Assembly: GCA_001724265.1 (NCBI GenBank)
Contig: MEDY01000264.1
Location: forward strand, 1-43,377
Direction of reading: 5' to 3'
Origin: Rhizaria sp. SCN 62-66
Taxonomy: Eukaryota
DNA length: 43,377 nt
Positions 1,622-43,377 of this stretch are shown here, piece after piece (the stretch's first letter is position 1; each line of letters starts with the position of its first letter). Position numbers and translations under genes: made by a program. Under the pieces are notes generated by a model. That model made no database searches. It was given only the letters and a program-made list of their open reading frames with translations, and was not told the DNA's origin.

Positions 1622-1812
1622 GTACGTCTTTCTAACCGTTTATTTTTGTATTGTTTCCTCGATAAGATTGTCTTAGCCGACCTGTTTTGCGCGCCCCCCC
1701 AACACCCTGCTTTTGCGCATAACTTTACGCTAACCTCACCCTTCCCCACCGCTCTGTTTCGCTTCTGCTTCACGCTACCCCACCCCTGACCCCGTCCGAT
1801 CACGCGAGACAG
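1622..1812 (+). other. Putative intron (191 nt) upstream of the main ThiI-desulfurase exon
   Basis: GTACGT donor identical to other introns in the window, pyrimidine-rich body, CTAAC/CTGAC branch-like motifs, CAG acceptor at 1810-1812. Confidence 0.7.
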
Positions 1813-1814
1813 GA

Positions 1815-4800
1815 ATGTACAGTCACGTTTTTGTGCGACTCAAGTCGCGTTTCGGGCAGAAGCCCTCCGAGGGTCTGGCTAACCGCAAGAGCGTGGACGC
1901 CGACGCCAGCGCCAAGCTCCAGGGTTACATCTCCGAAGTCATGAACTTCTCCCACTGCCCCAACAGCTTCGCGTGGAAGCTTGCGCACCCGGTCAACAGC
2001 CCCGCCGAGATGCCCGCGGCTGTGCGCGACGTGCTCGTCACCTCTGCCAAGGTCGAGTCCTTCTCCCCGGCCATCGTCACAGTGCCTGCGGGCGTCGCTC
2101 CGCCCGTCGCGGCTCCAGGCGCCGCCGCGCCCGTGTTTCCCGACCCCGCGGTGCCGCTGCCCGCGTTCACCGCGGCGCCCACGGACGAGACGCTGCCCGT
2201 CCCGACCTTCGACGAGATCATGGCGGGCTTCGAGCGCCTCGTCCAGTCTCTGCCGGCCGACTCGTTTACGTCGTTCTCACTCAAGCTCAACCCTTTCCGC
2301 ACAGGCTGCATGCCCGCGCGCGAGCTTGCCGTGGCGCTGCGCGACGCGATCATCGCGCGCATGGAGAAGGACGACAAGTGGTATGACCGCTCCTTCACCG
2401 CCAAACGTCTCACGGAAGAGCTGCAGCAACGTCTCACCGCAGAAGCTGAGGCGCGCGGCGCGTCGGCCGCCGAGATCGCCGCCGCCAAGGCCGCGAAGCT
2501 GCCCTCGACGCCGTTCTACCTCGATATGACGCGCGCGATCGGTTTCTGGTCTCCCGTCTCCGAATCGGGCGGTTCCGTCGCCGCCGCGATCGCCAACGAG
2601 CCCTTCTCGGCCAAGGGCCGCGCGCGGTCAGACGCTGAGAAGCGCGTCGCTGCGGGCAAGTCGGACCCGCGCACACGCGTCGCGGACCGCGTGGTTGCGG
2701 TCAAGATTGGCGAAGTGTTCCTCAAGAAGGGCAATCGCTCCAAGTTCGTGATGCAGCTGCAGAACAACATCCAGCACAAGCTCGGCGGCCGCGGCCAGGT
2801 GAAGCGCGAAAACCACAACTTCCTCGTCGTGCCGCCCGCCGCCGCTCCGGAGGGGTACGTGTTCACTGACGACGACTTGGAGTTCATCATCGAAGCCGTC
2901 AAGTGCGTCGCCGGCGTCGATACCGTGTCCCCTGTGATCCGCACCGGCACGGACATGGCTTCGCTGGTGACGGCGTACCAGTATCTCTGCGCCGTCGCGG
3001 GCGCCAACAACGAGCACCCCGTCACCGCCGCGGCGCCCGTCGCCTCGCCGTCGATCCTGTACACGCCGGCCGACGCGCGCGCCGCGGCCGCGATGCTTTT
3101 CGCGCCCGCCTCCGCACGCTACGCCGCCGGTGTGACACCCCACGAGCTCGAGCTCCGCGCCGCCGCCGCGGACTCGCTGCTCAGCGTCACACGGCTCGGC
3201 GCGCGGCTCGACGTGCACCTGCACTCGTCGCCGCTCTACACGTCCAAGACCACGCTTGCGCGCGAGCTGGCGGTGGCGGCGCGCAAGGAGACCTCAGTGC
3301 TCGTTGGCGGCTCTGTCTTCATCCCGCACCCCGGTCGCGTGTACGCTGAGGAGCAGGAAACCGCGGCCGCCGAGCGCGCCGCACGCCGCGAGGCTTTGCT
3401 CGCGGACTACACTGCGCAGCGCGCGAAGCTGCTGGCGGCCGAGTCTGGTGTGTCTGCCGAGTCCGCGGCGGAGGAGGCCGCCAAGGACGCCGCCGCCGCG
3501 GTCGCCGCGCAGGCCGCCGCCGACGCCGCCGCGGCCGCTGCGGCCGAGAACGCGTCCACGTGGGTTGCCCCGCGCTCCGGCGCCCACCTGCGGCTCGATG
3601 TGACGGAGCACGTCGCGTACTTGGGCTTCAGCAGCGGCCCGGATTACATCGACGCGATCGGTGGCCAGCCCACGGCGACGGGCGGTGAGACGCAGACCGT
3701 TGTCGCGCTGCTCTCGGGCGGGATGGACTCCCCCGTTGCGGCGTTCTCCATGATGCGCCGCGGCATGCGCGTCATTCTGGTCCACTTCCAGAACGCGAAC
3801 CTCGCCGACGAGGACACGGTCAAGCACAAGATCGTGCAGCTTGCGGAGCGTCTGTCGCGGTACCAGATCTCCACAGTGCTCCACATCGTGCCTTTCAGCG
3901 CGATTCAAGACGCGATCATCATGGAGGTACCGTCGCCGGCGCGCATGCTCGTGTACCGGCGCTTCATGTTCCACGTCGCCGCGCTCGTCGCGAACAAATA
4001 CAACGCGCGTTTTCTTGTGCTGGGCGACGCGCTCGGTCAGGTCGCGTCACAGACTGCGTCGAACATGTTCGCGTCGTACATCAACACGCCGCTGCCTATT
4101 CTGTCCCCGCTCGTCGGCTCCAATAAGCGCGACATCATGGCGACGGCGGAGAAGATCGGCACGTACGCAATCTCCGCGCTGCCGTACGGCGACTGCTGCT
4201 CGTATTTCCTCGCCAAGCACCCGCTGACCAAGATCAAGCCTGAGGTGCTGTCCTCGTACGAGGCCGCGGTGGGCGCCAAGTCCCCCGGCGGCGCGCTCCA
4301 GCTGGTGCGCTCGGCCTTCATCGCGTCTGCGATCTTGCGTTGGGAGCGCGCCGACGGCTCGCAAGAGGTGTTGCGCGAGGTTCAGCCCGTGCAGTCGGTG
4401 TACCACGAGCAGGTTGCGAAGCTGCTTGAGTCGTGCCCGATGCGGCCCCGTGACGCTGATGACGACGATGAGGGCGGCGACGACGCCGCGGACGACGAAG
4501 ACGGCGCTGCTGAGGGCAAGGGCAAGGGTAAGGGCAACAACAAGAAGGACAAGAAGGGCGGCGACAGCGCTGCTGCTGCAGTAGTGGAGATGAGTGACGA
4601 CGCCGTCCTCGCCGGCGCCAGCGCGGCCGCCGACGACGCCGGCGCGGTCATCGACATCAACAGCGCGCGCGACGCCTGTAGTACCGAGGCGGGCGACGCC
4701 GCGGGCCCGCGTGTGAAGCGCGCGCGCGGACTGCACGGCGGTGAAGTTGAGGTTCCCGGTCAGCTGCGGCTCGGTTCTGCTCTGCGCCACACCGGCCTCT

Positions 4801-6821
4801 CTGTGTACAACCCCAACTTCCTTGCCTCGCTCAACAACGGCACCAACGCCTCTGCTGGCGGCCACAACAACAGCAGCGCTTCGTCTGCGTCTGCCCGTGC
4901 TGCCGGGATGACTGACGGCGAGGATACCACGACCCCGCTGACCGCGCTTGCCGACATGGCGTCTTCGACCGCAGTTTCAACCGGCGCCGCGCTGCCCGCC
5001 CCGCGCGCCGCGACGACGCGCGCGTACTTCGACAACGCGGCCACCACGCCGCTGCTGCCGCGCGCGCTGGCCGCGATGCTGCCGTTCCTCGGCGGCGCGG
5101 CGTTCGCGAACCCGTCCTCACAGCACTCTGCGGGCCAAGGCACCGCGGCTATAGTCGATGAGGCGCGCCGCGTGCTGCTGGGTCTGCTCAACGCCCCCGT
5201 GGCCGCCGCAAGCCAGGTCTCGCACGAGGCCGCCGCGGCGTCCGCTGCGGCCGAGACCGGCAAAGTCGGGCTCGCGGGCAAGAAGGGCAAGGACCAGCTG
5301 CTCGCCTTCACCTCCGGCGGCACCGAGGCCAACAACATGGCCATCATCGGCGCCGCACGCGCTGCCGTCGAGCGCGCGGTCAGCGACGTGCGCGACGCCG
5401 GTATCGCCGTCGCCGGCGCCCGCGCCAGTGCAGCGGGGACGGCGACCGCGCTCGCGGCCACCGCGTACACGCACCTGCGCGTGCACCTGGTGACGTCGGG
5501 GCTGGAGCACAACGCCGTGCTCGAGGTCGTGCGCGCGCTGCAGACGTCGCCACAGCTCCTTGCGGGGGGCACGAACCGGCCTGCGAGCAACGTGACACTG
5601 GACCTCAACGTCAAGGTCTCGGTCGACGTGACGTACGTGCGCAACAACACCGCTGGCGTGGTCGATGTCTCGCACGTCGAGTATATCCTCGCGCAAGACA
5701 ACCAGCGGCTCGCCAGCGCGCGCGCCGTGTCGGCCGCCGCGGGGTATCTTAACAGCGCGCCTATGTCCGAGACCGGGTACCCGTCGGTCGCCACGCCTGT
5801 CCTCACACTCGTGACGCTGATGCACGGCAACAACGAGGTCGGCACGCTCCAGCCGCTGGCGCGCATCGGCGCAGCGCTGGCGAAGCACCGCGCCGCCGGG
5901 GCCGCGGCCGTGCCCACGGTCTTCCACACCGACGCGTGCCAGTCGTTCGGCAAGGTCCACCTCGACGTGCGTGAGTGCGCGCTGGACCTGGTCTCGATCA
6001 ACGGACACAAGCTCCACGGCCCCAAGGGCGTCGGCGCGCTCTACGTTCGCCCCGGCGTCGCGCTTAGTCCGCTCGCGGTTGGCGGCGGCCACGAGGGCGG
6101 GGTGCGGCCCGGCACGCTCAACGTGCCTGCAATCGTCGGGTTCGCCGCCGCCGCCGCGGACACCTTCGGCGTTACGACGTCGCTGCTGGATCCAGCACTG
6201 GCGCCGCTGCCGGTCACCGCGCCGCTCGTCCGCGCCGTCGCGCCCCTGCCGACGTCGCACTTGGTGGCGTCGCGCCCCGGGATGCCGCTGCCGAGTCTCC
6301 GCGGCGCGCTGGTCGATATCGCGCGCTTCGTCAAGACGGTGTTCCCCCGCGCGCATATCAACGGGCCCTTCGCCACCGCCGTGCCATTCGCTGCCTCGTC
6401 CCCTGCCTCAGCGGCAACGGCTGCGACGGACAGTGACGAGGCCGAGGCCAAGACTGCTGCGAGCGCTGCTGAGGCCGCGACGGCGCAGGAGCAGGAGCAG
6501 GAGCAGGGCGTCCAAAGCGCTCTGCCCAACATTCTCTCCGTCACTCTCGACCGCTCCGGCTGGCTCGACGCGTCGACTCTGATCAAGTTCATGTCTTCCC
6601 GCGGTGTCGCTGTGTCATCGGGCTCGGCCTGCGCGTCCAACGCGGAGCCCGCGCCGTCGCACGTGCTGCTGGGTATGGACGTGCGTGCCGAACAGGCCAA
6701 CGCCACGGTCCGTCTTTCGCTGGGGCGCATGACTACGCCCGAGGAGGTGGAGCACCTTAAGAAGGTGCTGGGCGAGGTTAGCGCGCTCAAGGAGAGCCGC
6801 TTCAAGCCCCTTAGCCGGTAA
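1815..6821 (+). CDS. thiI: Fusion protein: ThiI-type tRNA 4-thiouridine (s4U8) synthase (two NFLD/THUMP modules + PP-loop catalytic domain) joined to a C-terminal PLP-dependent group I cysteine desulfurase (NifS/IscS/NifZ-like)
   Basis: ThiI motifs: KIGEVFLKKGNRSKF (~2703), PP-loop LLSGGMDSPVA (3714-3731), GDALGQVASQT, KIGTYAISALPYGDCC (DCC at 4191-4199), KHPLTK. Desulfurase motifs: YFDNAATTP (5025), NPSSQH, FTSGGTEANN, EHNAV, MHGNNEVGTLQP, FHTDACQSFGK, PLP lysine in GHKLHGPKG (6009), catalytic SSGSAC (Cys 6630-6632), PSHVL, VRLSLGR. One uninterrupted 1668-aa ORF ending TAA. Confidence 0.93.
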   Translation: MYSHVFVRLKSRFGQKPSEGLANRKSVDADASAKLQGYISEVMNFSHCPNSFAWKLAHPVNSPAEMPAAVRDVLVTSAKVESFSPAIVTVPAGVAPPVAAPGAAAPVFPDPAVPLPAFTAAPTDETLPVPTFDEIMAGFERLVQSLPADSFTSFSLKLNPFRTGCMPARELAVALRDAIIARMEKDDKWYDRSFTAKRLTEELQQRLTAEAEARGASAAEIAAAKAAKLPSTPFYLDMTRAIGFWSPVSESGGSVAAAIANEPFSAKGRARSDAEKRVAAGKSDPRTRVADRVVAVKIGEVFLKKGNRSKFVMQLQNNIQHKLGGRGQVKRENHNFLVVPPAAAPEGYVFTDDDLEFIIEAVKCVAGVDTVSPVIRTGTDMASLVTAYQYLCAVAGANNEHPVTAAAPVASPSILYTPADARAAAAMLFAPASARYAAGVTPHELELRAAAADSLLSVTRLGARLDVHLHSSPLYTSKTTLARELAVAARKETSVLVGGSVFIPHPGRVYAEEQETAAAERAARREALLADYTAQRAKLLAAESGVSAESAAEEAAKDAAAAVAAQAAADAAAAAAAENASTWVAPRSGAHLRLDVTEHVAYLGFSSGPDYIDAIGGQPTATGGETQTVVALLSGGMDSPVAAFSMMRRGMRVILVHFQNANLADEDTVKHKIVQLAERLSRYQISTVLHIVPFSAIQDAIIMEVPSPARMLVYRRFMFHVAALVANKYNARFLVLGDALGQVASQTASNMFASYINTPLPILSPLVGSNKRDIMATAEKIGTYAISALPYGDCCSYFLAKHPLTKIKPEVLSSYEAAVGAKSPGGALQLVRSAFIASAILRWERADGSQEVLREVQPVQSVYHEQVAKLLESCPMRPRDADDDDEGGDDAADDEDGAAEGKGKGKGNNKKDKKGGDSAAAAVVEMSDDAVLAGASAAADDAGAVIDINSARDACSTEAGDAAGPRVKRARGLHGGEVEVPGQLRLGSALRHTGLSVYNPNFLASLNNGTNASAGGHNNSSASSASARAAGMTDGEDTTTPLTALADMASSTAVSTGAALPAPRAATTRAYFDNAATTPLLPRALAAMLPFLGGAAFANPSSQHSAGQGTAAIVDEARRVLLGLLNAPVAAASQVSHEAAAASAAAETGKVGLAGKKGKDQLLAFTSGGTEANNMAIIGAARAAVERAVSDVRDAGIAVAGARASAAGTATALAATAYTHLRVHLVTSGLEHNAVLEVVRALQTSPQLLAGGTNRPASNVTLDLNVKVSVDVTYVRNNTAGVVDVSHVEYILAQDNQRLASARAVSAAAGYLNSAPMSETGYPSVATPVLTLVTLMHGNNEVGTLQPLARIGAALAKHRAAGAAAVPTVFHTDACQSFGKVHLDVRECALDLVSINGHKLHGPKGVGALYVRPGVALSPLAVGGGHEGGVRPGTLNVPAIVGFAAAAADTFGVTTSLLDPALAPLPVTAPLVRAVAPLPTSHLVASRPGMPLPSLRGALVDIARFVKTVFPRAHINGPFATAVPFAASSPASAATAATDSDEAEAKTAASAAEAATAQEQEQEQGVQSALPNILSVTLDRSGWLDASTLIKFMSSRGVAVSSGSACASNAEPAPSHVLLGMDVRAEQANATVRLSLGRMTTPEEVEHLKKVLGEVSALKESRFKPLSR

Positions 6822-13669: not shown

Positions 13670-14342
13670 GGGGAGAGCTAACAGGATCGGAAAAGAAGCG
13701 CAAGAAAAGCGGAACGGGCAAAGGCGGAAGCGGGGGCGATGGGTGAGCGACGGAGGAGGGAGAGACGAGGAGCAGGGACAAAAGATATTTCAGGCGTCCA
13801 TACTGTGAGGTTGGCAAGGCATGTGGACGCGCTAGCAGCGTAATTTGAGTACAAATGACACCAAGCTCGCGTGAGATACTTGTCTAACACGTCCACAGTG
13901 CTTTCCAGACCGGCCGGGAGCACCCGGAAGGAAGTCCAGAAGCACAGAAGTGGTGACGAATCGAAGCAGTTTCATCCTCTATCGACAAGAAGAAGACTCC
14001 ATGCACAAATGTCTAAATCAAAAGCACTAGAAATCACCAGGAGAACATCATTTAATAAAGATTTAACTCCTCAAATTTTAACATATGCTCACAAATCGCC
14101 GTGCAAGCTCGGCGCGAGGCGATGAATCGCTCGACCACGAAACTAAGCCGCACTGGACCGGCTCACAGTCACCGCAGAGCGTGCCGCTCTACCACAAACC
14201 CGTGTGCCCGTCTTTGCGCAGCCGTCGTGACATGGAGTGTTAGTATAACTGCAAATTTATTGCTTTTACAAAAATTATCATGTGTGATATATTGTTAAAA
14301 AATAAAATTGGTTGACATAGTAACGAAGAACATGATATATCT

Positions 14343-17300
14343 TCAATATTCAAGTAACGAGTCACGCTTCTCATTACCGTCCGGCGTCCGGCTGCCCTTG
14401 CTAGCCCCCTTCTTGCCGTGCTTGTCGACCGTCACGGCAGCCTTGGTGCCCCGTGGCGCGTTTGCGTCCGGTACCGGCGCAAACAGCGTCCCCGCACCCA
14501 ACGAATCGCCCCTCGACGACGGCGCATCCCCTGCACCTGTGTCGACTTCCTCCCGCGCCCAGTCTCCGAGGTCACGGTCAATCAGCCCACGGTCACGGTC
14601 ATGGTCACCGTGCTGCTGCTGCTCACGGCCACGCTGCTCTTGCTTGTCGCGGTTGTGCTGCAGCAGAGCGCGCGTCTCTGGCTCGGACGTGTCGTCGCTA
14701 GCGCCTTGTCCGTCTTCGCCACTGGCGCCACGCTGCTGTTGTTGTTGCTGTTGCTGGGGAGGATGTTGCTGGTCAGGCGAGCTGTCGTGCTCACCGTAGC
14801 GGCTGCTGCTGCGCTCGCGTCCCTGCGGACGGCTCCCTGGTGACGTCACGGTCACAGTGTGCCAAGGGTCTTGGCCGCCGCCGCCGCCGATATCTGTGGC
14901 GCGCGACTGCAAATGTGGCGGCTACTGCTGAGGCAGCGAGCCGGAACCAGTTCCAGTTCCGGGGGCGACGGAGACTGCGGGTGCGGGCGCGGCTGCCGGC
15001 ACGATTGCTGTTGCTGCTGCAGTTGACTGTGGTGCTGTTGACTCTGAGAAGGGGACAGCAACGCGCAGTGCACCGACCGGCGCTGCGGCTGTTTGCGTCG
15101 ACACTGGCGCTGACGACAGCAGCTCAGCGAGCGGTGACACCGGCGACTCGGTCGCAAACGGGTTCGCCGTCTTCGCGCTGGCAGCGCTTGCACTGATACT
15201 CGCGGTGTTGTCGTCAGCAGCGCTGTCGCGAGTGGCGAGGAGAGCGTGAATCCCGCTATCCGCGGAGCTCTTGACAATGTCGAGAGGCGGGGAGATTGTG
15301 GGAAGACGCTGGTACAAGCGTTGCTGCTGCAGCTGACCATAACTAGCGTCGGCACCTGCAGCCGCGCCACTGCGACTGTGCCCTTGACCGCGGGCAGCGG
15401 CGGCACGAGGCTGGCTGTGCGGCTCTGGGTAGACGCGTGAAGGGCTCTCCCAGCCCAGTCCGTCGCTGCGCGCATTGCCGCGAACGCTGTCGCTGCCACT
15501 GCCGCTGCTAGATCCGGTGCTCGAGCGGCCGCAGCTGGTCGTGGTGCTGACGCCGTCTTCCTCCTCCTCCTCGTCGCCTGCATAGGTCGCAGCGGCCACG
15601 GTGGCGCGCGCCATGCTGCCGTACTGCCCGCGCTGCGGCTGGCCGCGGCCTGCGCCCGCCTTCTGCGCGGCGATGGCAGCAGCGGCGGCTGTAGCGAGGC
15701 GGCGGGCGGTAGAGCGTGAAAACGGCACACCGTGTTCGTCCACGTCGACGCTGTCATCGCGGTCACTGCGGTCACGTGGGAGATAGCCGTTGGCGGCGCC
15801 GCCGATGCTCTGGTTGCCGCTCAGGCTGCCGTGGCCGTTGCGCAGGGCGTCGTCATCGTAGTCGGAGCCGAAGAACGGGGGACTGCCATGCTGCTGCTCG
15901 CGGTGACCATGAGCACCAGATGGTCCCGGCGCCGCAAAGTAGTCCGTCACAGTTACAGGCGCCGCCCCCGTGGTCTTCTCGCCGGCGCCCGCACTGACTT
16001 GGCCGGGCCGCATTTGAAGCGGCTCACCGTGCGCCGTGTAGCCGCCCACGGTAAGCTCGTTCATCGGCGTGAGCACAGTGACCGCCGGGCCGGGTCTCGT
16101 TGCTGCGCCAGTCACATTCACCACCGGCGGCACAGGGCGGCCTTCGGCACGCGCGCGCATGCGCGCGGCGTCTGCCTCCGCTGCGCGGCGCGCTTCGGAG
16201 ATGCGCACCATCTACAGTGCGCGCCGATACGCCGCCTGCACGGGGTCGCTATCGAAACCGGCGCTGTCGGGGCCGGCCTCAAGCCGCAATGCGCCGTCGT
16301 CGCGGTCGTCGCCGCTGCCGCTGCTGCTGCCTTTAGCGAAGCCTCTGCGCGCACGGCGCTCCTAATCGGTGTCGCGGTCGCGCTCGCGGTCACGCTCGCG
16401 GCCGCGGCCGAGCAGCGGGTCCGTGCTTGACGGCGGGTAGCAGCGGACGCCCTCGCCGCCGATGGCCGCGGCGTCGGCGCTCGCGGCGGCGGCGGCGCCT
16501 GGGCTGAACTCGGCCGTGCGCGGCATGTAGCGCAGGAAGCGGCCTGTGCCGGCCCAGAGACAAGCGCTGGCGACGGTGCCGACAGCGATGGCGAGGAACA
16601 GATCGGCAGTAAATGCTGTAATAAGCGCAGTAAACGCGGCGGGCACGGCGGCATAGAGAAGATTCCAGTCAACGGCGTCGGCGTGACCGAGCATCGTGGT
16701 GCCCACAGTCAGCAGCACTGGCGCAGAGCAGAGCTAAGAGATATAAAACAAAAGCGACATTTGTTGAAAATTATAAGAGTACTTTAATCATAACAGTAAC
16801 ATTGTGTTAAATTATTTTTACATCAAAATTAGCTGATATTCAAGTTATTCATTCATGTTTCCATGAAGTTCGAGTTGTCATTTCGTACCCGAGGGAGTGC
16901 GGCGATTCCAGGTGCAGCGAAAGAGGTGAGCAGAAATAGCATAGCGGCAGTCACGGCAGCAAGTCCCGTGCGCGCGCCACGCTGGACACCAAGCGCAGAC
17001 TCGACAAGAATCACAGTCGGCGGGCAGCCCAGGGGCGCGGCAGCCGCTGTCGCGAGTGCAGGCGCCAGAGTCACCCAGATCGGCGCAGACTGCGATACAA
17101 GAAACAAGGAGGAAAAAACAGGTTGGGCATATAAGTCTAGAATATATTTGTTGATTCAAATTGAAGTATTGTTATTTTGAGTCTAAACGCACCTTTTCAT
17201 GCTCTGGCGCAACGCCGTGTCCGTGGGCCGACACGCGGCGATACGTCGGTAACAGGCCACACATGCGACGCAGTCCGTAAGACGCGGCCAACACATCACT

Positions 17301-27400: not shown

Positions 27401-30400
27401 TTGGCGACGCGGGCGGATACCCAGCGGTACCAGGGGTACCGGTGGTGGCGCCAGCTGCGAGGCCGAGCCCCAGCCCCAGACCTAGGCCAGGACTGAGACC
27501 GGAGCCGGAGCCTTGCGCTTGCAGTGCCTGGACCTGCGACTGGGGAGTCTGTGCTTGCGGGTGCGGCGGCGTGAGCGCCTTGGCCGAGGCACCCCCGGGG
27601 GCCGCGGCGGGCGGCGGGAAGTCAAGCCGCCTGGGCGACGCGTCCCCGGTGTCGGCGAACAGCCGCGTCGCCGCCCCGGGCGCGCCCACCAGGGCCGTCG
27701 TGTTGCTGGACAGGGCGAGGGGCGGGAGCGGCGGCGCGCCGGCGGGCGGCAGCGTCGGCGCGGGGGACAGCGACGACGACTGCGGCAGCCCCGACTGCAG
27801 CGGAGACTGCGAGTGCGCGGACTGAGAGAGCAGTGAGTGCGACTGCGGCAGCGCTGGTGACGACTGCGGCGGCGCCGGTGACGACGGGGGCAGGCCCGGC
27901 GACGACGGCGGGAGGCCGGGCGACCCCCGCGACACGCTGCCACTACCGTTGCCGTTGCCGTTGCTGTTGTTGGCGAGTGCGGCGCTGAGGAAGCCCGAGC
28001 CGGCGCTGACAGGGGTGCGCGACAGCGGCTGGCCTCCGCGCCCCCCCGCCAGCGGCGGCGGCTGCAGCGCCGCGTTCAACCCCGAACCCGCGCCTGAGCC
28101 TACGCTGGCCCCCGCAGCCGCCGCCGGCGATGCCCCCAGTCCGAGGCCGAGCGCGGGGATGGGGGGGTGCTGCAGCGCGGCGGCGGGGTGCAGCACGGGC
28201 GAGTGCGCCGCGGACGCCGCGGCCGAGACGGGCGCCGACACTGGGGCGCCGCCGCCGCGCTGGCCCGCGAGCCCATCGCCAGCGCCAGAGCCAGCGATTT
28301 TGACCGCGGCCGAGGGGAGAGCAACCCCCCCTCCGCCGCCGCCGCCGCCCCATCCTGGCCCCCCCGGTCCGCCGGGTCCGGCCGCGCCCCCGGGGACGGC
28401 GACGGAGACCTGGAGCGAGCCCGCGGCCGAGACGGCGTCTGATCCCCCCGACGCCGCCGACGCGGCGGAGGCGGCGGAGGCGCCAGACATGGCGCCGGTG
28501 AGCGGGTGAGGCGACAGCGCGGGGCCAGGCCGCGTCGCTCCGGGGGGAGTGGCCGCCGAGAGCGAGCGCGACGCAGCGACTGAGCCGGGTGCAGACACTG
28601 GCAGAGACGCTGGCACTGGCACTGGCACGGGCGCGGGCGCGGGGGCAGGCGGGACGGGGAGGGCGGGCGCTGCGGGGCTCAGACCGGAGCTGGCGAGCGG
28701 GGGCCGCGAGTGGTACTGTTGCTGCTGTTGCTGCTGCGGCTGGGAAGGTGGGAGAGTGGCGGCCAGAGGCAGCGTGGGCCGCGGCGACGACGACGGCGAG
28801 GGCGCAAGAGACTGCGGTCTCGACAGACCACCCACCGGCCCTGGCCCTGTTGCTGGTGCGACACCGGTCACGGTCACCGAGGCGGCCGCGTTCGCAGGAG
28901 CAGAAGGTCCGCCAGCGCCCGGGATGGCGGAGAAGGGCAGCTAGGCGCCGCTGCCCGCGGACAGCCCCGGCGTGTGGGACGGGGACAGCGACGCGAACAG
29001 CGGTTGCTGCGATGATGATAGCTGCTGCTGCAGCTGCTGCGGCTGCGAGAACTGGGACTGAGACGGCTGGGGCGAGTGGTGCTGCGCGCGGCCATGCGCG
29101 CCCATGCTCACTGGCGCCGGCGGTGGCAGCGACACTGCGGAGGCTTCGCGCGAGATCGCGCGCTGCATTAGCATGGCGGCGGCACCTGTGACCCCGCTGA
29201 CAGAACCCACGGGACCCGCGCCCCCAGACGCGGACAGCGGCGAGCCTGTCGCCGAGGCAGACGCCGCGGACACCGCGTGAAGTGACTGCGCCTGCGTCTG
29301 CAATTGTGAGTGGGAAGGGGACGAACGTACGTCGAAATTGGCCGCGCCGGGCGGCATCGCGCAGGGGGGCAGCACCACGGCTGGCGCCAGCGCAGGCGCC
29401 GGGGGCTCTGCGTCACCGTCGACATCAGCGGCGTTGACGGCGTTCTTGGCTCTGCCAGCCTCGGGCGCGGGCGCAGGCGCGGGTGTGGCGAGGACGCAGC
29501 CAGTCGGCGCACTGGTCGGCTCGGCGGAGGCACGCACTGGTGTCTGCACCTCAGTCTGTGGTTCAGTCTGCGGCCGTGTCTGAAGTGACCGAGTGTGCGT
29601 TTGCTGCTGCGACGCTGCGGCGGCTGGGGCGGCTGCGGCGGCGGCGGTTGCGACAGCGGCGGTGCGGCGGCGCGCCGGCGTGGCCGCGGGCGACAGCGCA
29701 TGCGCTCTACTGATACTCAAATTGGCACTGTCATTGTGACTGATATTGTTGTTATATATGTGTGCAGCCGCGCCGCGGTTTGGCGACTGCGACACCGACG
29801 GCGACGTGTTGAGCATGGGCTGAGCGTCTAGCACGCGCACGGGCTGCTGCGGCGACTGCACCTGCGACTGCGGACGCGGCTGCGCGTGTGTCGGGGGCAG
29901 CACCACCGCGCTCGAGACACTGACGTCGCTAGCGTTGCCGTCGGCGTCGCTGTGTGACTGCGACTGGATTAGCTGCGCCGTCGAGGAAGAGGCGTTCGGG
30001 GCGGCAGCGCGACTGCTGTAGTGGCTTGACTGCATGTAATTCAGCGGCGAGCTGAATGCAGCCAACCGCGCAGACTGAGGCGCGGGCGCAGCGCCGCTCA
30101 TTGCAGTTCCCGCGTTTGCGTTCACGGAGGCAGTCGACTGCGACTGCAGAGGCGCGGGCGAATGCGAGTATGCGGCAAGCGGGGGCGGCATGATGTCAGC
30201 GGGCAGCGTGAAGGTCACGTCGTCGTCGCTGCAGTCGCTGTTGCGGCCGCTGTGGCCGCCGGTGCCAGAGCTTCCTTCGCTGGCCCCGCGCTGGAGCCGC
30301 GGCGCCGCGGGCAGGCGCGGGCCCGCGGAGACGGCGGACATCTTGGGCGTGTGCGCGGCGGAGGACGCGGCGGAGATAATCGACTGCGCGCCCGTGACGG

Positions 30401-30797
30401 AGGCGCCGGGCAGCACTGCGAGGGCGAGGGAGGCGGCCGCGTGGGGCGGTGACGCTGCGGCTGCTGCGGCGTTGGAGGAGACTACAGCAGCGGCCGCGGA
30501 GGCAGACTGCGCAGATAGGAGCGGGAGGGGGTGCGACAGCGCCGAAGGGACAAACATGTTCTCAACAGGCGCGGCGCGAGCGGCGACGACGGGAGACCGG
30601 CCGTCGAGAACGGCGCCTGAGAGCAGCGAGACTGACGGGGACAGTGGGGAGAGCGGTTGCAGCAGGCTGCCGGACGAGGCGACGGTTGGTGCGGACAGAG
30701 ATGTGTCTGATTGGGCCTTAAGTGGCGCCAAGTTGGCGAGCCCATCGCGGGGCGCGTTGAGGGACGCACCCGACGGCGATGACTCACGAGCAGACAT
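21486..30797 (-). CDS. Giant low-complexity (Ala/Ser/Pro/Gly/Gln-rich) protein of unknown function; 3103 aa if the single in-frame TAG at 28943-28941 is read through
   Basis: ORFs 28941..30797 and 21486..28877 are in the same frame, separated only by one TAG. Uniform GC-rich composition bounded by AT-rich flanks. ATG 30797 has an upstream in-frame TGA; terminal TGA at 21488-21486. No recognised domain; a short predicted helical segment (ELVQLLASYAERIGSMHVALQQQLAQTLL) and a Gln-rich C-terminus. Confidence 0.7.
27841..27921 (-). repeat. Degenerate 21-nt tandem repeat (4 units) encoding PGLPPSS-PGLPPSS-PAPPQSS-PALPQS
   Basis: Plus-strand units such as gacgactgcggcggcgccggt / gacgacgggggcaggcccggc / gacgacggcgggaggccgggc. 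Confidence 0.75.
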
Positions 30798-32298
30798 TGG
30801 GTTGACGCGCGAGGACGCGATGGCTCAGACCGGCTTCCGACGTGAGGCTGGGTCGATCGAAAAAGAGATGCAGCACACGTAAAGAAACACATGTTTGAAG
30901 GAGGTTAGGATATTATATTATAAATAAATAGTTATCCAGACGGGTTAAGTCGTGAAGCTCATTTACGATGTAGCTGGCGAGAATCACATTCTTAAACGAA
31001 TGCTGCAGCCCGACTCCGAACCACCACAAACCAAAATCGAGGCCTCGTCACAGTACCAACCATCCCAAGCGAGTTATAATGAGATTTTCTCTCTTAATCC
31101 TTTTATTTTCCGAGTAATTTTTGGGTATAACAAAGGTGCAACCTAAAATATTAGCATATCCTTCTGAAGCTTGCTTTAAGCTTGATGCTGACTATGTTTA
31201 GTCTTTGATTTGTTCGAAAGCAACTTTCGTAACCCACGTCGCAGATTGGTGTTCGCTTCATCTCTCAAGGCCCGAACAATTTTACATCTGCACATCTTTG
31301 CGCGAGCATATATACACTGATGTTTTCATGCATTTTTATGACATGGCGCACTCTTAACGCTACCTCTTGAGAGTATCTTGCCGATAGAACTTCTCATTCT
31401 TCAAGTTTCTCAGGTACGTGCAGCCACGGGTGCTTCGCAGTCATAAACAGGTTAGTTCACAGTATACAGGTGACATAAGCGTTTTCACTCTACCTTAATT
31501 CATAATAGGCAATTGGTCACTCTTGTCGTTCCTTCTGAGTCGCGCCTACATCATTCTCCATACCTGCTCGATTGTGCGCTCATTGGTACATTATATCAGT
31601 GCAGCTATGGAGAGTTGCGTTTGTTTCTATGGTGTTATATCTAGGTACAATACATATTATTTTGGATGAGAGTTAAATTACATGCAAATACGTTTGTTTT
31701 CACATCAATAAATAGTTTCTTGTGTGTAAACTATGGAAACGTGTTCGCCAATCATAGCCAGTGCATCAACTAAAAACACAAAGCTTGAGACGCAAATGTA
31801 CAAGGTTGAAGTGCAACAATACACATTATTACATTAATTTGAGTCAAATTCTTTAACTTTCACTACTCTATCCGTAAATTTGAAAGATCAGGTTGGGTTC
31901 AAGTGCGTAACTGTGCCTGAGGAGCAACTAGTGATGAGGATAGGGCTATATCAGACACCAACTTGAATAAATACCACCACAATAATATACAATACACATG
32001 TGATGTTATATTCAAAATTTGCATTCGTTGCGCTGCGACCCGCGTCGTATCAATGTGTTTTGGTCGGCTGTAACGCTTATACTCGTGATCTGACTGGGCG
32101 AACGGAGTCGGAGGAGCAAAAACGGCCAACAAGAGACTAACATGTTCAGTATCTCGATAGAAATTCCGTTAATGAAAGTGCCGACACATATTTCAAAATT
32201 TAGAGTAACTTTGAACGATTATTTATTGTATTATATTTCGCAGCACTCTTTTTAGAACCTGTGCAAACAAGTTTAGTGGAGCAACGCTGTTCCTTCCG
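30798..32298. promoter_or_regulatory. AT-rich spacer between two divergently transcribed giant genes (probable promoters and 5' UTRs, possibly with UTR introns)
   Basis: Head-to-head ATGs at 30797 (-) and 32299 (+). Orphan CAG|GTACGT donor at 31414 and TTTTTAG acceptor ending at 32255. No recognisable protein or core promoter motif. Confidence 0.4.
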
Positions 32299-35200
32299 AT
32301 GTCCAGCGTCGCTCCGCCGCCTGAGGGCGGCCACAACTCCAAGGTTGTTTCCTGGTCGACTCCGCGCAACCACTTCGGACCTGAGCCGCCGATTCCCCCG
32401 GCGCAGCTCCCTCCTCTTCACCCGACCTCATCGTCGTCCTCCACAGTGCCCCCCGCCCAAGCGCCCGCGCCCCTTGGCCCGATCGCGGTTGTGTCTCAGC
32501 TCGCGGTCGCCGAGGCTGCCCGCGACATCACCGCGTTCCAGCAGCGCGCCCTTGGACACGTCACGCGCGCTGCTTTTCCCCGCGCCGCGCAACAGAGCTC
32601 ATCCCGCGTCCCCGGAGGCGCACACGATGCTCGCAATATTATTGGCAATCTAGGTCGTGGCGGCGGTAGTGTTGGAGGTTCTCCGCTGACTCGGCCGGGC
32701 GCGCTGCCCGCTGCGCTTACCCGCCGCTGGGCACAGGCCTGGCGCGAGCGCGCAGCGGCGTTTCCGTTACCGCCGGCCTCCGTGCAGCAATCTCAGGGCG
32801 TGAATGCCGATCTCACAACAACCGCGTTGGTGGAGGCTGTTGATGCCGAGGCCGCTGAGGCCGCACGGACCAAGGCTGCGCGTGCGCGACTGCAACGCTT
32901 GCTTCACGACCTCGAGACGCTGACGCGCTTTAGTACCGCACCGGGCGCGTCTTACGCCGCGCTTGCGACGGCCGCTTCCCCCGAGGCGGCTGCGAACGCC
33001 GCTGCGACGACGACCACTGACCCTGCGGCGTCTGCAGCGGCCGCGGATACACTGCTCGCGCTCGCCGTCGCCGTGTCGCAGATGGCCGCCATTGCGCCCC
33101 CGCCGCTGCCGCCGTCTCTGCGTGTTGCCGGTGTTTCCTCTGACGCGTCCGCGTCGAGTGCGACGTCGGTCACACCCGCCGCGCTCGCAGTGCCGCCGCT
33201 CTCGGCCTCGCACGCCGCGGCCGTGTCGTCTCTGGCGGCCCTGCGCGCGGACGCCGCCCGCCGCAGCGCGCGCGCTCGCTCTCTTGCCGCCTCATCCTCC
33301 GAGCTGGCAGCGACAGGCGCGCACAGGGACGCGCAGTGCCTTGCCGCCGACCGCGCCGCCGCAGCGCTCCAGTCGCAATACGCTGCGGCGCGGCGTGTCG
33401 TGTTGCGCCACGACGCTGAGGTCGCCCACGCGCGCGCCGTCAACGCCGCGCTGACGTCCTCGGAGGGCCGTGAACGCCGGCGCCGTTTCGAGCAGGTCGG
33501 CGCCGCGCAAGAGCAGGCGTACGCGCACGCTCACGCGCTGGCCTTCGCGCTGGGCCGTGCGGACGGAGTGTGCGCCGCGACGCGCGCGCGCGTGCGCATG
33601 GTCGTCGCGGAGACGCGCGCGCTTGCCCGCGCCGTGACGGCGATGGAAGCGGGCGCGGACGCAGTGCGCAGGGGCGCGCCCGCGCTCGCGGCGTCTGCTG
33701 CGACGCTGCAGCAGCAGACTCAGCAGCAACAGCATCACCTCTCCAGCGCCTCAGTGTTTGCGCCCGGTGCAGTGGACGTCGAAGGCGACGCCGTCTACCG
33801 CGTCAGCAACGCTACCGATAGCAAAAACAGCGTTCACGGTATGACTGACGACGAGAGTGACCGCAGCAGCGACGGCGACGGCGAGGGCGAGTCTGCCTGG
33901 GCCAACCCCGCCGTTGACACAGACACATTCCCTTCGACGCACACCGGCGCGAGCCACAGCTTTATGGCGACCGCGAACAACCGCGCGGCCGGCGGCTTCC
34001 GCGGCGGGTTCATGCTCACCGTCGACGCCCCGACCCCACTCTCGAATAACAACAGTGGCGCCACGGTGGCTTTGGCGACCCCGCAAGCGCTGGGCGGCTC
34101 TTTACCCTCCGGCGGGTCCCCGGGCGGGCCTGTGACACCGGCGCCGCGCCGGCCGCCGCTGCTGCAGCCGCTGTCACTGGGCACGCCTTCCAGCCCCGAG
34201 GCACCCACTTCACACCACGCGCGCGCAAACGCGCCTCACACCAGCTCGCACCACGCCAATGCGTTGACCGCTGACGCGTTGGGCGCCGGTGCGCGGGCCG
34301 AGAGCGCCGCGCGCGCCGCCGCTGCGGAGACGGCTGCTGTGGTGTTCCCATCGCCTTTGCTGTCGTTCCCGGGGCTGGCGCCGCTGCTCACGGTCTCCAA
34401 CCCCGTCCTCGCGGCTGTCGCGCCGCTCGCCACGGGCGGCGCCGCCGTCGCGCCTTCGGTCGCGGCCGCGGCGGTGCTGGGCGCGGGCGCGACGTGGGGC
34501 GCCGGCCAGCGCGCGTGGCGCGCGTGTCGCCGTCGGCAGCAGCGCCGGCGCCGCGCGGTGCTGCTCGTTGCGGCCGCCGCGCTCGCGCAGGCGTGGTGGC
34601 GCGCGCAGACGCTGCCGATCCCGCTGCCGCCGCCCGCGCCGACTGCCACCGCGTTGGCGTCGGAAGACGCCGACGCTGACGCGGGCGTCGACGCGGATGA
34701 CGGTGACGTCGACGGCGAGGATGCGGCAGCGGAGGGGGAAGACGGCGACGCTGAGGCGGATGTGGACCCTGCTGTGGCCGCAGAGCGGGCGGCGGCGCGG
34801 CGGGCGCGCGCGGCTGCGGCTGCCGAGGCCGCAGCTACTGCCGCTGCCGTCGCGGCCGACGCTGCGGTCGCGACGTCGCTGGAACCCTGGCTGCCCACAG
34901 GCGCTGCCACGGCCGCTGCAGCCGCGGTTTCAGCCGCGAACGCGCGCGCCGCCTCCGCTGCCGCTGCAGCCGCCGCGGCCGCCTCTGCTGCTGCCGCAGC
35001 CACCGCCGCACCGTCGTCGAATGCCGCCGCGATGGCCCAGCACGAGCTTGTACACGCAGCCTCCGCCGGTTCGCTGCCCGTCTCATCCTCCGGTGTCGGC
35101 CTGGCTCCACTTAGCGGCCTGTCTGCTCTCGGTGGACTCGCCAACATCGACGAATCCTCTGGCCGCATCCCTGCTACCGCTACCAACGCTAATACCACTG

Positions 35201-38200
35201 CGGCTGCGGCTGCCAACGTAACCCCGTCGCCTGTCGTTGCGATGTCCGCCGCTGCTGCCGCGGGCGCGCGCCTGGACGCGCACGGCGTCGCTGTGTACGC
35301 GGTGCTTATTGCAGCGCTCGCCGAGGCCGTCTCGCGTCTCAACGCGCTGCTGCCGCCAGAGACCGCAGCGCCAGGATTTGCGCTCCTTGGAGGCGCTGCG
35401 GGCCGCGGGCTCAAGAGCTCGCGCGCCGCGCGCCGTGCCGCGTCTGCCGCCGCCACCGCGACCGCGACGTCCGCGACGGCTGCGGAGGCGGTCGCTGACG
35501 GCGAGCCGCAAAGCAGGTCTGCGCTGTCAACGGCCCCCGGTACGGCGCAGGCCGGCGCGCGGCAGGGGCTGGCCGCGGCGACGATGGCGCTCGCACAGGG
35601 CTCGGGCTCTGTCTCGGCAGCTGCGACGCTGGCGAAGCGCTTTGCGGCCGCGCTGGCGGGCGCTGTCAACCCAGGCGCGCCCGCGCTGCCGCAGCCGCTC
35701 GTGGCAGTGCCCGGCGGACTGGCGGCCGCGGCGGGGCGCGCGCTGGCGACCGTCTCGGGCCCCGCGGCCGCTGCGGAGCCCGCTGCTGTGCCCAGCGCAG
35801 TCGCGACTGCGGGCCCGACTACCGAGGGCGATGCGATTGATGCGACCGCTGCGATGTTTGCGCCGGCGGGAGTGGCCGGCTCCGCCGCGACGCCGATGAA
35901 TGGGACGGGCACTGTGTCTGCGCACGTTCCGCCGCCGTCACTGTCGCCCGCTGCCGTGGCCGCCGCGGCGCGCGCGATCACGACAGTGCTGCTGCCGGCT
36001 CTGACGGCCGCGCACCACTCGCTCGCTACGCCCGCAGCCGCTGCAAACACGAGCGCTGGTAGCACTAATAACGGTGCGCAACCAGCGCAGTCTGGGCAAA
36101 CACAATCACCGCAGCCGCCGCAAGACAGCTTCACAGCACTGTGCGTTGACGTGCGCTCGTCTGTGCTTGCAGCGCTGGCGGCCACCGAGGCCCGCGAGGC
36201 GCGTGCGCTTGCCCGCGTTATGCTCAAGAGCTCCCTGCGCCCGCTGCCGCTGCCCGCACACTCAACTGCGACCGCGCCGGCCACTGGCGCTGCTGCTGCT
36301 GCGCCTGCAAGCGTGAGCACAGTGGCGCCGCTGGAAGAAGTCCTGACTCTGTACCCGTCGATTTTGGCGGGCACAAACGGTTCGATGCTGACATCATGCG
36401 TGCCGCCCACGCCCGCGCAACAGCTTGCCATTGCGGCCGCTGGCGCTCCCGCCGCGGGCGCCGCGGTTCCAGGCTCACTGGTTGGCGCCAGCGTCGGCTC
36501 GGGCACGGGCGCGCTGATCCCCAGTGCGCCGCTGTCGCCCGCGCTGCTGGCGCTGCTGCTTGCGGACTTTTCGGCCGCCACTTACGCGCGCACGGCGGCG
36601 CTGCGGACGGCGCGCGCGCGGGCTGCGGTCGCCGCGGCCTCGGTCGCCGTCCCCGCGCTGCACACTGCACCCGCCGCATCAGCGCCTGCGGCCGCGTCGG
36701 CGACAGGTCTCACGGCCGCCTTGCCGTCGCCTGGCACGTCCGCCGCGGCTGGAGCGGCTGGGAAGGACAAAGGCGCGTCGCTGGCCGGCGCCGCTGCTGC
36801 TGCCGCTGCGACTGTGGCCGGCGCCGCTGCGACGCCTGCCGCAACTGCTGCGGCCGCTGTGGCCACGGCGGGCGCCGCGCTGGCGCTGACGACGTCCGCC
36901 GCTGCCGTCGCAACTGCACTGCGCCGCTTTGCGCGCCGTACGCACCGCGCGCCTCCGTGGGCCGCCGCCGCCGCCGCTGCAAAGACTGCTGACGATGCAG
37001 GCGCGCGCCGAGGCCGCCGCACGCTGTCTCCGTCGCCCACCTCGGCCGGCTCTCACGCCCCCGTCGTCGTGCTATTCAACGATCACAAGACCAAGCCGAG
37101 CGCTGACACCAGCGCCACCGCCCCAAGTGGCGATGTCGCTGATGGCGAGGAGGATCCCGCAGCGACGACGCGGCGTCTGTTGCAACAGCGGGCTGCGGAC
37201 CTGCGCGCGCGCCGCGTGTCGCTCAACGCCCCGCTGCCGCAGCCGTCCGTTGCTGTCTCGATCACGGTCGTGACAGGCGCGGAAGACGACGATGGCGCTG
37301 CGCCGCCGCGGTCGGGCGCTGTGTCGCCGCGCACTTTATCGCCGCGCAATCTGTCCCCGCGCAACGTCTCGCGCTCGCCGCTGGCGCCGCACCGCGTTGT
37401 TTCCGGCTCGGGCACGACGAGCAGCCGCAGCAGCATGCGCAGCATCAGCAGCAGCACGTCCAGCTCGCCGTTTCCCGCGCCTGCACACACGCTGATGCCG
37501 CCGCAGCCCGCGCACAGCGGGGATGTTGACGGCGACTTGCTGCTGGCCACGCGCGACGGTGACGACCGCGTTGGCGGTGACGGCGATGGCGAAGCTGCGA
37601 CGCCACGCGCGCCGTCCGCGCTGCGCATGGCGCTGGACGCACAGGCCATTCTGGCCCAGGCCGCCGCGATACGCGCGTCCCGTCTCGGCACAGCGTCACT
37701 CACTGGACCCGGCGCAACGCCGTCGGACGCCGACGATGACGACGCCGCTCTTGCGGCAGCTGCCGCCGAGGCGGAGGAGGCGGACGAGAGCGACATCGCG
37801 CGGCGCCGGCGGCTGCGTGCGCTGGCCCGCCGCGAGCGCGAGCGCGGCCGCCAGCTGCGCGAGCGCGCCGGCGCCAGCGCCAGTGCCAGCGCCAGCGAGA
37901 GCGAGAGCGACAGTGCTGGCAGCAGCAGCGAAGGCAGCGACTGCGAGGAGCCCGCTGCGGGCGTTGCGCCGCACTTGCAGCTTCAGCTCGTGCACCAGCA
38001 CTACCAGCACCAGCTGACACCCGCCGCCGCTGCCGCCGCCGCTGCTGCCGCTGCGACCGCTGCGGCCGCCGCATCGCCGGCCGCTGCGGGCCGGGGCGCT
38101 GTTGCGCGCGCGTCGGCGAAGGCAAGCGCTGCCGCTGCAGCTGCCGCGAGCGCCGCTGCGCTGGCCTCGCGTTGTGTGCTGCGCGCGCGTACGTACGCCT

Positions 38201-43217: not shown

Positions 43218-43377
43218 GTAAGAACTTGCGAAATATTGAAACAACTGGAATTGAACTAGCACGCATACGAGATCATTCATTACCATCGGTCCGTCGTAGG
43301 ATGGCGCGCCGACGATTTTCGCTCCGCGCGGGCCCGTCGGAAATTCCCGGAACTTTTCTTTGCCTAATAAAGACCAT

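Follow-up and report, generated by a model that had tools for sequence, protein, structure and literature searches.

In-frame TAG codons in a GC-rich contig of an uncultured eukaryote: a lead towards a possible UAG-only stop-to-sense change

Nuclear genetic codes in which UAG alone has been reassigned are known from few lineages, and the described cases are mature, with UAG frequent and placed at conserved positions. In the fornicate Iotanema spirale, UAG is reported to encode Gln, with UAA and UGA as stops (PMC5304391). There, UAGs occupy conserved Gln positions in many conserved genes, 81 of the 81 first-in-frame UAGs examined were judged to be sense codons, and eRF1 carries the change T32G (PMC5304391). 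The same report describes the rhizarian exLh, in which UAG is read as Leu: it counts 384 in-frame UAGs across 71 genes, most of them at positions where Leu is conserved, gives only UAA (56) or UGA (15) as terminators, and points to eRF1 changes (PMC5304391). UAG is described as scarce in the highly expressed and ribosomal-protein genes of exLh, suggesting inefficient decoding (PMC5304391). Among ciliates, several independent UAG reassignments are reported for phyllopharyngeans (PMC11687900), and one species is reported to read UAA as Lys and UAG as Glu (PMC10553269). Ambiguous stop/sense codes, in which all or several of the stop codons often occur within genes, are reported from Condylostoma, Parduczia and Blastocrithidia (PMC5304391). 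Here we analyze four in-frame TAG codons in two genes of contig MEDY01000264.1 (assembly GCA_001724265.1, deposited as Rhizaria sp. SCN 62-66), whose full length of 43,377 nucleotides is referred to as the window. Its exons are GC-rich (65-78% GC), and its introns and spacers are AT-rich. The contig is present in public bioreactor, wastewater and activated-sludge metagenome runs from 11 studies; its source is an uncultured eukaryotic microbe from the communities of wastewater and bioreactors.

Three of the codons (TAG1 to TAG3) interrupt the last exon of a purine permease gene, and the fourth (TAG4) interrupts a giant open reading frame (ORF). An earlier note made from the DNA letters alone, hereafter the original prediction, had placed in-frame TAGs in these genes and had described the last permease exon as one frame running from 16733 to TGA 14343; all four positions were confirmed, together with that frame. 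The TAGs are real, TAG1 being the least secured, and coding signatures run through them. The features concerned are as follows.

18410 downward to TGA 14345-14343, minus strand: AZG-type permease gene, with matches to AZG2 and AZG1
18410-18268, 18132-17193 and 17089-16889, minus strand: permease exons 1-3 of the frame-keeping exon model
16733 to TGA 14345-14343, minus strand: last permease exon, carrying the final membrane segments to about 16530 and then a disordered tail
16364-16362, minus strand: TAG1, codon 552 of the permease model, between RDRDTD and ERRARRG in an Arg/Asp-rich low-complexity stretch
16214-16212, minus strand: TAG2, with ATG 16211-16209 directly after it
14924-14922, minus strand: TAG3, in the context CAG CAG TAG CCG
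30824-21486, minus strand: giant Ala/Ser/Pro/Gln-rich low-complexity ORF of 3112 codons, stop TGA
28943-28941, minus strand: TAG4, codon 628 of this low-complexity ORF

The permease model was chosen from only three frame-keeping exon models and yields a protein of 551 aa up to TAG1. Its introns are of the GT..AG type, measure 135, 103 and 155 nt (the last one preceding the final exon) and have a GC content of 0.26-0.33. Residues 32-168 of exon 2 match the solved transporters AZG2 (E 1.4e-14; 530 aa) and AZG1 (E 2.9e-11; 615 aa), represented by structures 8irl and 9j12, and the last membrane segments match 14 further representative proteins. Judged by this similarity to characterised AZG transporters, the predicted protein is a member of the AZG (AzgA-like) purine permeases; Pfam and NCBIfam gave no match to it at the thresholds used. 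Beyond TAG1 lies a disordered orphan tail of 673 codons, and the TGA that closes it sits within the AT-rich island 14219-14382.

Several independent measures were applied to the sequence past the TAGs. After TAG1, the frame contains 0 TAA, 2 TAG and 0 TGA in 672 codons, and the other five frames contain 9-27 stops each, mostly TGA; the probability of two or fewer stops ranges from 0.006, at the lowest density seen in another frame, to 7e-10. Three-base periodicity was detected in all three parts of the tail (p = 0.0014 between TAG1 and TAG2, 4e-13 between TAG2 and TAG3, and 6e-8 from TAG3 to the TGA) and on both flanks of TAG4 (p = 8e-8 and 1e-5), and was absent from introns and intergenic DNA (p 0.39-0.74). 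A codon log-odds score was trained on the other genes of the window, with stop codons treated as neutral. By this score, the 429 codons between TAG2 and TAG3 reach 0.23, above the maximum of 0.15 among 190 wrong-frame windows of about equal length and within the range of 38 true-frame windows, and the 49 codons from TAG1 to TAG2 give an ambiguous result. The regions beside TAG4 score 0.30 upstream and 0.24 downstream in the same frame. Both the 2-kb tail and the 9.3-kb ORF can be read without a single frameshift. The claim that coding-like GC content persists to the TGA is borne out, and stop avoidance and periodicity likewise carry on across the four TAGs without a change of frame. The open frame exceeds what chance would give, and the sequence past the TAGs is coding or was so until very recently.

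Across about 12,000 modelled codons the in-frame stops amount to 4 TAG, 0 TAA and 0 TGA, in agreement with the earlier statement that neither TAA nor TGA breaks a modelled frame. TAG4 is the sole stop inside the 3112-codon ORF and lies at 20% of its length. The secure gene ends, six in number, comprise two TAA (the ThiI/NifS fusion and the myosin) and four TGA (the S26 peptidase, the permease, the PRP21-like gene and the giant ORF), with no TAG. The view that all genes end in TAA or TGA stands, on a changed count from which two TAAs have been removed: TAA 41038-41040 lies inside the 125-nt intron of a second giant gene, and TAA 43215-43217, the apparent stop of that gene, overlaps GTAAGT, a possible splice donor with a possible acceptor at 43299, so that the gene may run off the window. 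If TAG is taken to make up about a quarter of terminators under the standard code, the chance of finding no TAG among six ends is P ~0.18. All six secure TAA/TGA ends lie at most 70 nt from an AT-rich island. The distances from the TAGs to the next island are ~1980 nt (TAG1), ~1830 nt (TAG2), ~540 nt (TAG3) and ~5600 nt (TAG4). The stretch from 16593 to 14383 holds no AT-rich island at all, which agrees with the earlier remark that no AT-rich intron surrounds the TAGs.

Searches for relatives of the tail returned the window's own pieces. A word-indexed search near its length range matched only the window's own 429-aa ORF, which ends at TAG3 and is on record from 5 contigs, and a full HMMER scan of 1.84 billion representative proteins found no relatives beyond such pieces. 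The tail also lacked matches among shorter proteins, but this search missed the window's own 118- and 189-aa pieces too, the low-complexity query having probably swamped the limit of 8000 candidates, and is not evidence of absence. Among solved structures, the last exon with its tail had no match. The surroundings of TAG4 (residues 380-880 of the giant ORF) had no relatives, and the giant ORF as a whole matched no Pfam family. All four TAGs thus fall in low-complexity sequence without relatives. The caveat of the original prediction, that none of them occupies a conserved position, was upheld: none lies in a conserved domain, and the length of 551 aa to TAG1 was reproduced.

Our single best explanation is that TAG is decoded as an amino acid in this organism; we hold it tentatively, as the likeliest reading and not as an established one. 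Ribosomes would then read through the TAGs, and UAG would be decoded at least so frequently that selection preserves the frames beyond it, with UAA and UGA terminating. The permease would be a protein of ~1224 residues, composed of a 551-residue transporter core and a 673-residue disordered tail to TGA 14343, and the giant ORF would encode one protein of ~3100 residues. By analogy with known UAG-only codes, the proposed decoding would involve a tRNA whose anticodon is CUA, together with an eRF1 that recognizes UAG less well. No tRNA genes were detected in the window or in five loci (L001-L005) recovered by a metagenome scan described below, Rfam matches were likewise zero, and eRF1 is not among the genes of the window. 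Since only four TAGs occur in ~12,000 codons, all of them in fast-evolving orphan regions, UAG would be a young or inefficiently decoded sense codon. With somewhat less assurance, we may be looking at a GC-rich, non-ciliate protist in which a stop-to-sense change, confined to UAG, is still young. At such a stage UAG would end no genes and would arise, probably from CAG, in the fastest-evolving disordered regions only; conserved and codon-biased genes would still be without it, the codon being in the course of capture.

Several observations weigh against this explanation. At TAG1 the permease has already reached a normal length (551 aa, compared with 530 aa for AZG2 and 615 aa for AZG1), and for the permease C-termini found in the HMMER scan the alignment covers no more than residues 1-120 of the last exon. 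Past TAG3, 192 codons have a borderline codon score of 0.02, although none of the other five frames scores higher. No TAG occurs in the five genes with family support, namely ThiI/NifS, the myosin, PRP21, S26 and the permease core (about 4,870 codons, a small sample from one window), and the long ORFs of the myosin relatives contain no in-frame stops. TAG1 is uncovered by the pieces listed from four other sequencing runs. With the GC-rich codon usage of the window, 59-72% of the single-base nonsense paths yield TAG, so four TAGs out of four have P ~0.13-0.25 as plain nonsense. The exclusive occurrence of TAG, which had been advanced as evidence, thereby loses most of its force, TAG being the expected majority of nonsense mutations here. 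The TAGs are also clustered, with three in the 673-codon tail and one in 11,390 other codons (p = 0.0007); relative to CAA/CAG, the ratio is 3:41 in the tail and 1:531 elsewhere (Fisher p = 0.0016). Clustering of this kind is not expected of an established Gln codon. Finally, the ratio TAG:CAG is 4:474, compared with 61:381 for the comparable T/C pair TTG:CTG, so that TAG, as a Gln codon, is far from equilibrium. Of the claim that UAG is reassigned to sense, the coding signature, the gene ends and the lack of both an AT-rich intron and a shared motif have stood up, and the argument from the exclusive use of TAG has weakened; the codons are also clustered, and none of them lies in a conserved domain.

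The original prediction had favored Gln as the meaning of UAG. Gln is the simplest guess, proposed because of the one CAG CAG TAG context and because CAG is one C-to-T step away. Neither an alignment nor an internal repeat supports Gln: no internal repeat places a sense codon opposite a TAG. Because no relatives align at the TAG sites and no repeat covers one, the amino acid cannot be inferred from this locus.

Under the standard code, the TAGs could be recent genuine stops in dispensable disordered sequence, the permease ending at TAG1, and the 2 kb of tail, like the 2484 codons beyond TAG4, would represent former coding DNA that has not yet decayed. We regard this recent truncation as rather unlikely, though it deserves serious weight. 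It accommodates much of what was listed above: TAG is the expected product of most nonsense mutations, the permease has its usual length at TAG1, none of the four TAGs lies outside orphan low-complexity sequence, and three of the four share one orphan tail, where a first truncation would permit the others to cluster. The codon score also drops along the tail, from 0.27 through 0.19 and 0.03 to 0.01. On the other hand, the tail shows no frameshift, TAA or TGA in 672 codons. Nonsense paths make up 2.1-3.1% of all mutational paths with this codon usage, so three neutral nonsense changes in 2 kb should have been accompanied by ~100 substitutions, plus indels. Truncation further requires fixed premature stops in two of about 8 genes, and the GC-to-AT change in composition is found at the TGA and not at any TAG.

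Variants between strains bear on the same question. Contigs of another run (X4) come from a strain ~0.3-0.5% diverged from that of the window. Differences from X4 number 3-4 in ~1330 nt of the tail, 7 in 1356 nt of the core exons and 5 in 393 nt of introns, these counts being approximate, as they were taken from tables. The tail is thus less diverged than the introns (P 0.02-0.03), which argues against truncation. Synonymous and non-synonymous strain variants number 2 and 1 in the tail, 6 and 1 in the permease core, and 9 and 9 in the giant ORF. For the tail and giant ORF pooled, 11 of 21 variants are synonymous against an expected fraction of 0.33 (P = 0.055), a weak hint at purifying selection in the proposed frame. 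The part of the giant ORF after TAG4 contributes 8 synonymous and 8 non-synonymous variants, or 8 and 7 without site 26015, which is also seen in many contigs of other organisms; the expectation of ~0.33 synonymous is again exceeded, contrary to what truncation predicts. One X4 contig of 737 nt begins exactly at 14925, adjoining the first base of TAG3. Such a border is what a polymorphic first base of TAG3 within the sample would cause, and in that case it would fit a recent origin of this stop.

RNA gives a further view of the tail. Contigs from polyA-RNA (X7) lie within it at 15453-15738 and 15746-16105, so the tail occurs in RNA; a long 3' untranslated region would give the same picture. 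Splicing could reconcile the locus with the standard code if TAG1, TAG2 and TAG4 were removed with GC-rich, frame-keeping introns and TAG3 ended a permease of ~950 residues, which we consider improbable. Two candidate introns were delimited.

16448-16212, minus strand: candidate intron removing TAG1 and TAG2 (GTCCGC…CTGTAG), 237 nt, GC 0.73, in-frame
29330-28941, minus strand: candidate intron removing TAG4 (GTACGT…GCCTAG), 390 nt, GC-rich, in-frame

Both candidates open in phase 0 with a match to GT[ACG]CG, the donor motif of this contig. Their last three bases are TAG, which is also the acceptor of two of the four modelled introns. The lone GTACGT of the 9.3-kb ORF stands in phase 0 and 390 nt upstream of TAG4, with an estimated chance of ~0.014. 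Within its exon, no stretch has a lower codon score than 16448-16212 (-0.07; a value as low as this occurs in 0.4% of 243 true-frame windows), and the segment after TAG3 has the score near zero already given. The introns modelled on the contig, however, are of a type of 103-155 nt with a GC content of about 0.3, a GT[ACG]CG[TA] donor, a pyrimidine-rich 3' end and a YAG acceptor. The candidates depart from this type in their size (237 and 390 nt), their GC content of 0.71-0.73 and a pyrimidine fraction of ~0.5 before the acceptor, where no tract is seen. The interval 29330-28941 is as coding-like as its flanks (0.23 versus 0.20 and 0.18; periodicity p = 8e-8), and the low score of 16448-16212 was dropped as an argument because Arg codons drive it. 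Looser GT[ACG]CG motifs are frequent in true coding sequence, with 8-42 per ORF. The 192 codons past TAG3 are open (chance P 0.0004-0.08) and periodic (p = 6e-8), and TAG3 itself is not removable by any frame-keeping intron with a donor-like start. Joints at 16448/16212 or 29330/28941 were absent among the 15 joints listed, with 949 others outside these. As a separate observation, the GTACGT at 29330 and, 33 nt on, AATTGCAG delimit an in-frame, mini-intron-like interval (29298-29330, minus strand) inside the giant ORF. Its 33 nt fall far below the length of the modelled introns, and its removal would leave TAG4 in place.

Programmed or leaky UAG readthrough specific to these genes would also keep the standard code and would produce C-terminally extended isoforms; we judge it quite improbable. 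Like sense decoding, it accounts for the preserved downstream frame, and it suits the concentration of TAGs in a C-terminal extension that the protein does not need to be complete. The codons that follow TAG1 to TAG4 are GAG, ATG, CCG and CTG, and the mean column identity of the contexts is 57%, with no motif. Folding of the RNA 3' of the four TAGs gave z = -0.30, -1.24, -0.27 and +0.12, that is, no unusual structure. The earlier claim that the sites share no readthrough motif is thereby sustained and extended to stimulatory RNA structure, which speaks against readthrough. In addition, three leaky stops in series would leave very little full-length product, a poor fit to a 673-codon open frame, and TAG4, at 20% of a 3112-codon ORF, does not precede a terminal extension.

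Finally, one or more TAGs could be assembly or consensus errors in low-complexity GC-rich sequence, TAG1 being the likeliest, a possibility we rate as very slight. The repetitive Arg/Asp-coding stretch 16233-16434, which includes TAG1, is without cover among the pieces listed from the four other runs. In X4 and X7 the TAG sites likewise lack cover, and such gaps in themselves speak neither for nor against the codons. TAG2 is covered solely by a piece from run X5 (15932-16232), which reaches 18 nt past it with 0 differences. Against an error, DNA contigs of the independent run X3 bridge TAG3 (14000-15281) and TAG4 (28031-30837), each with 0 differences; no alternative letter is reported at any TAG, and the records of the 429-aa ORF from 5 contigs reproduce the stop at TAG3.

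The remaining genes of the window are listed below.

1734-6821, plus strand: fusion of ThiI and a class-V aminotransferase, stop TAA
about 8306-7382, minus strand: Peptidase_S26 signal peptidase in three exons, stop TGA
13789-8906, minus strand: myosin with WW, SH3-like, head, MyTH4 and GYF regions, stop TAA
21230-18741, minus strand: PRP21/SF3a-like splicing factor, stop TGA
32215-40987 and 41113 onward, plus strand: second giant low-complexity gene, two ORFs with a 125-nt intron

The ThiI fusion is a single ORF of 1695 codons with a long N-terminal extension. It contains a ThiI ferredoxin-like domain and a ThiI domain at residues 321-843 and a class-V aminotransferase (NifS-like) domain around residues 1355-1474, so one protein may hold both a sulfur donor and a tRNA thiolation enzyme. 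The small S26 gene sits between this fusion and the myosin. Two of its exons match Pfam PF10502 (E 1.6e-08 and 7.6e-05), and both of its introns start with GTACGTT. In the second giant gene, the intron spans 40988-41112 (AAG|GTGCGT…TTTCAG). The myosin has two GYF stretches at its C-terminus, and its TAA comes 6 residues past the last domain. Its WW-head-MyTH4 layout fits class IV, an architecture described as widespread (PMC3942036).

The myosin-based metagenome scan yielded the five loci mentioned above. Two of them are fragments of the same strain, and three come from AT-rich organisms (36-39% GC) whose myosins are 58-73% identical to that of the window. L001 is the only one with sizeable flanks, and its neighboring genes differ from those of the window. 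The scan thus allowed no comparison at the TAG sites. The architecture of the window myosin is also seen at L001 2969-7303 and L003 1487-6538, and these close myosin relatives differ by ~30 points in GC content. One AT-rich contig of the set matches Pfam F_actin_bund_C, a family that we take to be based on an amoebozoan protein and use as a lead only. A search of the literature on in-frame UAG in Amoebozoa found nothing relevant among the 15 papers listed of 18, and no bin contaminated with this eukaryote turned up in a scan of prokaryote genome contigs.

One 43-kb contig cannot prove a code change, and the present case may best be taken as a worthwhile lead, not as a demonstration. If UAG is indeed a sense codon here, its great scarcity inside genes and its absence from gene ends would give a view of how a code change begins, and codon capture versus ambiguous decoding would become testable on a living lineage. 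Standard gene callers would then cut the proteins of this organism; public protein collections already carry the tail as separate pieces of 118, 429 and 189 residues. If the standard code applies, the locus would instead be an example of a GC-rich codon usage that steers nonsense mutations towards TAG, and of long disordered tails that still look coding once truncation has occurred.

When set against the known systems, the locus resembles I. spirale in that only UAG occurs in frame, UAA and UGA end the genes, and Gln is the amino acid proposed. In contrast to I. spirale, the 4 TAGs in ~12,000 codons include none at a conserved position, and the lineage is a different, GC-rich one. The likeness to exLh extends to UAG as a sense codon (here a proposed one), to gene ends in UAA or UGA, and to conserved genes with strong codon bias being free of TAG; TAG density here is, however, far lower, and nothing in the window points to Leu. 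As in the ambiguous codes, a codon could be sense within a gene and a stop at its end. Because TAG is the expected majority of nonsense changes, its occurrence in four of four cases leaves it possible that TAA and TGA are readable as well; unlike those codes, the window has 0 in-frame TAA or TGA in ~12,000 codons. The contig also differs from ciliates, as GC-rich exons, introns of 103-155 nt and the lack of in-frame TAA are unlike ciliate macronuclear genes. What the ciliate reports add is that UAG is able to change its meaning alone, and repeatedly (PMC11687900, PMC10553269).

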